Both the position numbers and the translations under genes were made by a program. 33,389 nucleotides of DNA, from the NCBI RefSeq assembly GCF_006345805.1, contig NW_021832065.1, positions 1 to 33,389 of the forward strand. The letters are read 5' to 3'. This document shows positions 20,844 to 21,031 of this stretch, one piece after another (positions within the stretch are counted from its first letter, which is position 1; every line of letters starts with the position of its first letter). The stretch is from Octopus sinensis. Taxonomy: Eukaryota. Under the pieces are notes generated by a model. The model was given only the letters and a program-made list of their open reading frames with translations, did no database searches and had not been told where the DNA came from.

Positions 20844-21031
20844 TTTCCGAGGAATCTAATGCTCTTAGCTTAGTTTTTCGTTGGGCTGGCCAGATTGGAG
20901 CAATCTCAAGATTAATCAGCCGAATTGCGAGGATGATCCGGTTCTTGACTGAAGATAAAGCTTCGAATGACCCGTCCGTGTTTTTTGCCTCGTCTATTTG
21001 GATGTTTGCTTTTCTTGTCCATTTTGCATTT
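20844..21031 (+). repeat. (TA)n-embedded repeat carrying a permuted hammerhead-like motif
   Basis: Paralogous to 15856-15983 and bounded by (TA)n on both sides. Confidence 0.65.

Follow-up and report, generated by a model that had tools for sequence, protein, structure and literature searches.

A hammerhead-like motif with reversed block order and an upstream stem II in an octopus repeat, and its probable counterparts at the 3′ ends of Naiad retroelements

A stretch of 33,389 nucleotides from Octopus sinensis (contig NW_021832065.1, positions 1 to 33,389 of the forward strand; the whole of it is hereafter called the window), made of microsatellite-rich animal DNA, contains at 20900–20955 the words of a hammerhead ribozyme in an unusual succession. 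Hammerheads have been divided into three blocks, S with the cleavage site, G with GAAA and C with CUGANGA, and six block orders have been named, of which type-SGC and type-CSG were shown to cleave (Eckert 2023, PMC10085705). The question raised by this locus is whether words arranged as S-G-C in an octopus repeat belong to a hammerhead, where the stem II of such a hammerhead would lie, and which element carries it. Our analysis indicates that the motif is probably the decayed remnant of a hammerhead variant in which the blocks follow the reverse order and stem II finds its partner upstream. The variant is likely to be self-cleaving, and its fold is also found at the 3′ ends of Naiads, a group of Penelope-like retroelements.

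The observation at 20900–20955 is exact, and its words and pairing were confirmed. CTGAAGA (20949–55), TCTTGA (20943–48), GAATTGC (20922–28), TCAAGA (20906–11) and ATC (20903–05) lie where a reading of the letters alone (the sequence-only reading) had placed them, and the stems I (TCAAGA/TCTTGA) and III that it had proposed form with 6 of 6 and 5 of 5 pairs, respectively. The same reading had announced a minus-strand paralogue with GAAA, which was recovered at 15984–15869 with 76% identity, and a locus at 29052–29106 with the same layout and different, yet complementary, stems; here too the order is S-G-C, with 6/6 pairs in stem I and 5/5 in stem III, and the stems covary between the two families. 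The window was scanned for all six block orders, demanding at least 6 pairs in stem I and at least 5 in stem III, and this returned the S-G-C layout twice and an ordinary type I once. Local dinucleotide shuffles gave on average 0.02 S-G-C layouts, and none of 150 reached two; when GAAA was demanded, the window kept one layout, a result matched by 2 of 150 shuffles. CTGANGA by itself is mildly enriched (18 versus 11.6; 2/100 shuffles).

A convincing stem II had been reported as missing from 20900–20955, which turned out to be wrong: the six bases ahead of G12 pair 6/6 with a strand located 5′ of the cleavage block, and thus outside that interval (Table 1). The resulting helix starts with a G10.1–C11.1 pair and is also present in the structure computed by RNAfold. 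A stem II directly 3′ of CUGANGA was considered and rejected, as only 0–1 pairs form there in the window copies, and 0, 0 and 3 in the loci L030, L051 and L134 described below. Two further helices belong to the window copy: P4, with 6 of 7 pairs, which starts beside the stem II 5′ strand and closes just 5′ of stem I, and a hairpin, P0, which precedes the stem II 5′ strand. The linker from stem I to stem II measures 2–5 nt in the window copy, L030, L051 and L134, and holds a long insert in another locus, L031. In fuller copies the bases 3′ of CUGANGA pair with a far-upstream strand, forming a helix X, whose 5′ partner in the window copy would fall upstream of 20847, where the copy ends in (TA)n; in fact, this copy starts at P0, right after (TA)n. 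Because its block G reads GAA, one A short of GAAA, one G was lost and the 5′ end is truncated, the window copy is probably inactive.

Naiads have been described as (TA)n-targeting Penelope-like elements without canonical hammerheads, some of them with unexplained half cores (Craig 2021, PMC8557442). The helices defined in the window could be tested independently on Naiad-like loci, which were fetched afterwards with a degenerate pattern for the C-terminus of the reverse transcriptase (RT). At least 121 metagenome loci and 19 from a genome collection were obtained, at least 140 in all, and 134 were left once six bacterial chance matches had been dropped; 80 loci had long flanks. A core-only scan found three strong S-G-C matches, all within the 90 kb downstream of the RT motif; the 184 kb upstream, the 35 kb far downstream and the 309 kb antisense yielded only matches of other orders, six in number. 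When a four-helix descriptor that requires the upstream stem II and P4 was run on the 134 loci, it matched four of them (L030, L031, L051 and L134), in every case on the sense strand and 700–1440 nt 3′ of the RT motif, with no match upstream (184 kb) or antisense (309 kb). On shuffles it gave 207 matches in 211 Mb, about one per Mb, or an expectation of about 0.09 for the 90 kb of proximal downstream sequence. The open reading frames (ORFs) of L030 and L134, 926 and 921 amino acids long, have an N-terminal GIY-YIG followed by the DKA and RT motifs, which is the Naiad layout; both loci are full-length Naiads.

The strands of each helix fit each other better than those of other loci. Within loci, 34 of 35 pairs form in stem I, 29/30 in stem II, 27/28 in stem III, 29/30 in P4 (five loci) and 14/16 in helix X; when the strands were swapped between loci, the values were 102/210, 91/150, 105/168, 46/120 and 23/48, respectively. 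Swapping thus roughly halves the pairing of stem I, P4 and X, and brings that of stems II and III down to about 60%. By contrast, the catalytic words stay the same while the stems change: CUGAUGA, GAAA and UH are intact in all four fetched loci, the core is also intact at 29052–29106, and position 10.1–11.1 is G–C in 6/6 loci with a stem II, as in standard hammerheads. Every helix partner is found in cis within 130–170 nt, and stem III, of 4–6 bp, is not palindromic. The helices, the conserved core and the place 3′ of Naiad ORFs are therefore seen directly in the sequences, and that they reflect a conserved structure is almost certain; the CUGANGA/GAAA/UH core, the covarying stems I and III and a stem II with G10.1–C11.1 beside G12 are all features of a hammerhead.

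The same form recurs in published Naiad consensi. File S5 of PMC8557442 was read by eye around CTGANGA matches, so that words split by a line break would escape, and the rearranged form was recognised near the 3′ end of 11 of 54 consensi (two of the 11 are imperfect) from about eight lineages, whose hosts are a ctenophore, cnidarians, an arthropod (by file order) and cephalopods. Their strands follow the order X5′, P0, stem II 5′, P4, S, G, P4, C, X3′, and in the cleanest consensi X, P0 and stem II abut with no spare bases. Six consensi from the nematode parts of the file (parts 13–16) end, by eye, in a clean type-CSG, two more show S-G-C with an unclear stem II, and no such motif was seen by eye in the remaining 35.

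Variation within the family of the window copy points in the same direction. The contigs of four public runs that align on the repeat at 20846–21031 are 3641, 1324, 3199 and 84, figures which are not copy numbers, and the family is very large. An extra A behind 20922, giving GAAA, is present in 84, 48, 59 and 4 contigs (26–52% of depth), and many more are clipped there. C at 20880 makes up about 90% of depth in the four runs. An extra G behind 20882, in 52, 34, 32 and 3 contigs, frees G20884 for stem II, and therefore P0 and stem II can form together. The variant C20939T restores the seventh P4 pair, and one subfamily has two matching changes per side of stem I and a P4 of 7/7 pairs, the two sides coming from separate sets of loose ends that do not show phase. 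Close to the predicted cut, loose ends 5′ of 20923 become rich in AT, with an agreement of about 0.6; this was discarded as too weak a sign of copies starting there.

From these data a fold can be proposed in which the strands run in the order X5′, P0, stem II 5′, P4, linker, stem III/UH/stem I, 2–5 nt, stem II 3′/GAAA/stem III, P4, stem I/CUGANGA, X3′. A9 would run into helix X and not into G10.1; X, P0, stem II and the A9–G12 stack would meet in a four-way junction, which would keep stem II stacked under the core via the C11.1–G12 strand, and P4 with the short linker would tie stem I to stem II, as happens in type-SGC. By analogy with hammerheads, an intact copy is predicted to cut after H17 in block S (20905/20906) and might in this way trim the tandem transcript of the element, a role that is a hypothesis even for the hammerheads of canonical Penelope-like elements. 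Judging from the sequences, intact copies would probably cleave. It is somewhat less certain, but still rather likely, that this is an active natural hammerhead outside the six block orders, with CUGANGA held to stem II by a four-way junction, and that the reverse-order forms, including CSG, are overlooked ribozymes of many Naiads, which would number thousands of copies in hosts ranging from ctenophores to cephalopods and could be exchanged for twisters. As to this last point, the element L038, 59% identical to L030 in protein, shows in its 3′ untranslated region (UTR), at 3076–3135 (+), a type-P5 twister-like match (E 0.052, below gathering) instead of a hammerhead, as would be the case if the class of the self-cleaver did not matter to an element that depends on having one.

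A number of observations weigh against this explanation. The rearranged hammerhead is not general to Naiads, since among the 59 fetched loci with at least 650 nt downstream it is present in 4 and missing in 55, many of the latter being broken copies or bearers of other motifs. The pairing within loci is partly so by construction, the descriptor script was written after the results of the core-only scan had been seen, and L134 can be drawn in two ways. None of six RNAfold structures is more stable than its shuffles (z 0.4–1.6; the method ignores pseudoknots), and an Rfam search gave no hammerhead match in the window, where the matches are microsatellite noise. As regards the carrier, no Naiad ORF motif occurs in the six frames of the window, whose copies are short 3′ fragments; the family is tied to Naiads by its architecture, its (TA)n flanks and its place close to the 3′ end; and of three stem I/core words of the window looked for in the published Naiad consensi, two gave no match and the third one match with an unrelated stem. 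GAA may be common in the family, GAAA accounting for only 26–52% of depth at 20922. Moreover, another Penelope-like element, Poseidon, does not need its hammerhead to insert in vitro (PMC11167929), and open PubMed Central and bioRxiv yielded no report of a natural hammerhead in which a junction connects A9 to G10.1.

The identity of the carrier is where an alternative survives best. The sequence-only reading had proposed a (TA)n-embedded retroelement terminus, and the repeat is indeed (TA)n-flanked and resembles a retroelement end; we infer that 20846–21031 is the 3′ end of a Naiad-type Penelope-like element or of a non-autonomous derivative. The repeats could instead be another mobile element, retrozyme-, viroid- or short interspersed element (SINE)-like, bearing the same ribozyme: no ORF is linked to them, type-SGC occurs in viroid-like metatranscriptome contigs, and non-autonomous retrozymes derive from Penelope-like ends. 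This seems unlikely, as in each window copy the core lies about 75–130 nt from the 3′ end, a distance shared with octopus Naiad consensi, the copies are inserted in (TA)n (a feature that is not specific to Naiads), and wherever the split form was seen beside an ORF it stood 3′ of a Naiad-like one. There is, in conclusion, a good probability that the family is Naiad-derived.

Less probable is that the motif is a conserved non-catalytic RNA domain, descended from a hammerhead and used as a binding or initiation signal for the RT of the element. Such a domain would suit the break between A9 and G10.1, the hammerhead mutants without effect on Poseidon insertion and the fact that Naiads thrive without recognised hammerheads; against it stand catalytic words and a G10.1–C11.1 pair that remain fixed while all stems change, nematode Naiads that carry complete type-CSG hammerheads at the same place, and a sister element that has a twister-like motif.

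Minimal type I hammerheads of Penelope-like elements act as dimers or in trans between tandem copies, and a dimeric or trans-acting ribozyme had been suggested for this locus as well. Since stem II forms in cis with the upstream strand, a dimer is not required; Penelope-like elements do occur in tandem and a pseudoknotted monomer, with no support from minimum free energy, may fold poorly, yet the short distance of all partners in cis, the brevity of a non-palindromic stem III and the agreement of linker and P4 with the described type-SGC fold make a real ribozyme of this kind improbable. A simple tandem of type I hammerheads was also rejected as origin, because it cannot yield the S-G-C order. 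That short words came together by chance in repeat DNA rich in AT, for which one could invoke the length of the single words, the lack of Rfam matches and the ordinary folding energy, is already strongly disfavoured and very improbable, given the shuffles of the window, four matches in 90 kb against about one per Mb, and the recurrence in unrelated Naiads.

Table 1. Features of the window copy, of related copies and of the published consensi with the rearranged form.
Feature	Position	Strand	Remarks
Repeat copy, 5′-truncated, between (TA)n tracts	20846..21031	+	Flanks; family contigs; no ORF motif nearby
Hairpin P0, damaged	20847–54 with 20877–84	+	7/8 pairs; arm of predicted four-way junction
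Stem II 5′ strand, displaced 5′ of cleavage block	20884..20889	+	G10.1 = 20884; 6/6 with 20916–21
P4 5′ strand (P4 links the distal ends of stems I and II)	20890..20896	+	6/7 with 20935–41
Block S: stem III 3′ strand, U16.1, C17, stem I strand	20900..20911	+	U16.1 = 20904; C17 = 20905
Block G: stem II 3′ strand, GAA, stem III 5′ strand	20916..20928	+	C11.1 = 20921
P4 3′ strand, stem I strand, CUGAAGA core	20935..20955	+	C3 = 20949
Helix X 3′ strand (putative)	20956..20970	+	By comparison with L030, L051, L134 and 29888–30012
Paralogue, truncated just 5′ of block G	15869..15984	-	76% identity; GAAA present, block S absent
Second family: S, G (GAAA), C	29052..29106	+	Stems I and III of other letters; upstream part is TA-rich DNA
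Third family, decayed; fourth copy in window	29884..30022	+
Naiad consensi with the rearranged form			Naiad-3_Chem, three Acropora elements, two near part 12, one near part 19, Obim, Ovul; Esco and Bfor less clean; names partly from file order

The other copies of the window are more damaged. At 29052–29106 no stem II was recovered, either in the one register tried (0/5 pairs) or by the descriptor. The copy at 29884–30022 retains 7/8 pairs in X, 5/6 in stem II, 6/6 in stem I, 4/5 in stem III and 5/6 in P4, and it lacks G12, has C at 16.1 (U16.1 is lost) and shows no recognisable P0. On its 5′ side, at 29660–29830 (+), there are two degenerate tandem segments, each with GCCGAAAGG, possibly older GAAA blocks. 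The ordinary type I hammerhead lies at 20367–20427 (-), with a stem I of 6 bp, a stem III of 5 bp and GAAA, in another (TA)n-flanked repeat end, and was not reported by Rfam. A probable minimal type I, at 20630–20725 (+), was noticed by eye and failed the descriptor; it has CTGACGA, a long stem II, GAAA and a very short stem III. A broken frame at 19445–19990 (+), in which Pfam and Atlas found nothing, presumably resembles the region ahead of the C-terminal GIY-YIG of Penelope-like elements. Near trinucleotide arrays, at 9099–10039 (-), there is a decayed remnant of a retrotransposon without long terminal repeats (non-LTR), with a weak zf-RVT match (E 0.0003).

Three other conserved motifs occupy the position of the ribozyme in the 3′ UTR of Naiads lacking the hammerhead: the first in L017, L025, L043, L056, L062, L074 and Naiad-1 and -2_Chem, the second in L021, L024, L060 and L122, and the third in L009, L052, L130 and L131. 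Rfam gave no match at these motifs in the 20 loci scanned, 7 of which bear them, and no hammerhead match in the same 20 loci; the three motifs are candidates for twister-like or new self-cleavers. Elements resembling selenocysteine insertion sequences (SECIS) lie 3′ of Naiad ORFs in L029 (1987–2048), L045 (4009–4071) and L122 (1271–1334), as described also for clam and spider Naiads. L051 encodes, at 605–2365 (-), a fusion of the Naiad-like RT with a ubiquitin carboxyl-terminal hydrolase domain at the C-terminus (PF00443, E 2e-32). Naiad RTs also appear in prokaryote genome records (L122–L125, L127, L129–L134, L136 and L139), likely from contaminating animal DNA.

Should the proposal be true, non-circular RNA permutations would no longer be confined to rare viroid-like RNAs but would extend to the genomes of animals, CUGANGA and stem II could not be assumed to need contiguity any more, and it would be explained why Naiads seemed to be without the ribozyme carried by other Penelope-like elements. 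All copies escape standard hammerhead searches, and for the engineering of ribozymes it would be of interest that insertions can be placed freely between A9 and G10.1.

With respect to known systems, the motif is hammerhead-like and outside types I–III: it does not follow their cyclic order C, G, S, which is free of pseudoknots, nor does it match Rfam. The sequence-only reading was right that it is no circular permutation of these types, and went too far in suggesting a topology never described, since the S-G-C order is that of type-SGC. Type-SGC (HRIMA-1 and its variants) is known only from metatranscriptomes, partly from viroid-like contigs, and not from genomes of known organisms (PMC10085705); our three scans of viral contigs gave no match. 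The two share the block order, the full core, the short linker between stems I and II and the helix joining the other ends of these stems. They differ in block C, which in type-SGC is regarded as indivisible, with stem II directly following CUGAnGA; here no stem II follows the core, so that the motif is not a fit to type-SGC, and the stem II 5′ and P4 strands lie 5′ of block S. Eckert et al. assume at most 1–2 inserted bases between A9 and G10.1 (PMC10085705), whereas helix X and hairpin P0 sit at this place in the present form. In the open literature of PubMed Central and bioRxiv we could not find a report that links S-G-C or CSG forms to Naiads, describes a block split between CUGANGA and stem II, or places these forms in animal genomes. 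As for Naiads, the available text of PMC8557442 states that canonical hammerheads are absent and gives no structure, and the families of the window are not among its consensi as far as searched; the (TA)n preference, the cephalopod remnants, the labels ‘HHR_core’ and ‘HHR_half_core’ and the fold visible in the consensi agree with our observations. Canonical Penelope-like elements and non-LTR retrozymes carry type I hammerheads (PMC8557442 File S2; bioRxiv 10.64898/2026.07.22.740005), which resemble the present form in the core, the place in the element and the short insertions after A9, and differ in being nested three-way junctions of order C-G-S, often with a minimal stem III. The A9 site evidently tolerates change, because ordinary Penelope-like hammerheads commonly have one or two bases inserted after A9 (File S2, PMC8557442). 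The passages on hammerheads in PMC3088659 name no helix inserted there. Type-CSG, published from only two metagenome sequences (PMC10085705), has A9 bonded to G10.1 and neither X nor P0, but it shares the reversed cyclic order, and the form described here results if its P4/stem I/CUGANGA piece is transferred from the 5′ end to the 3′ end.
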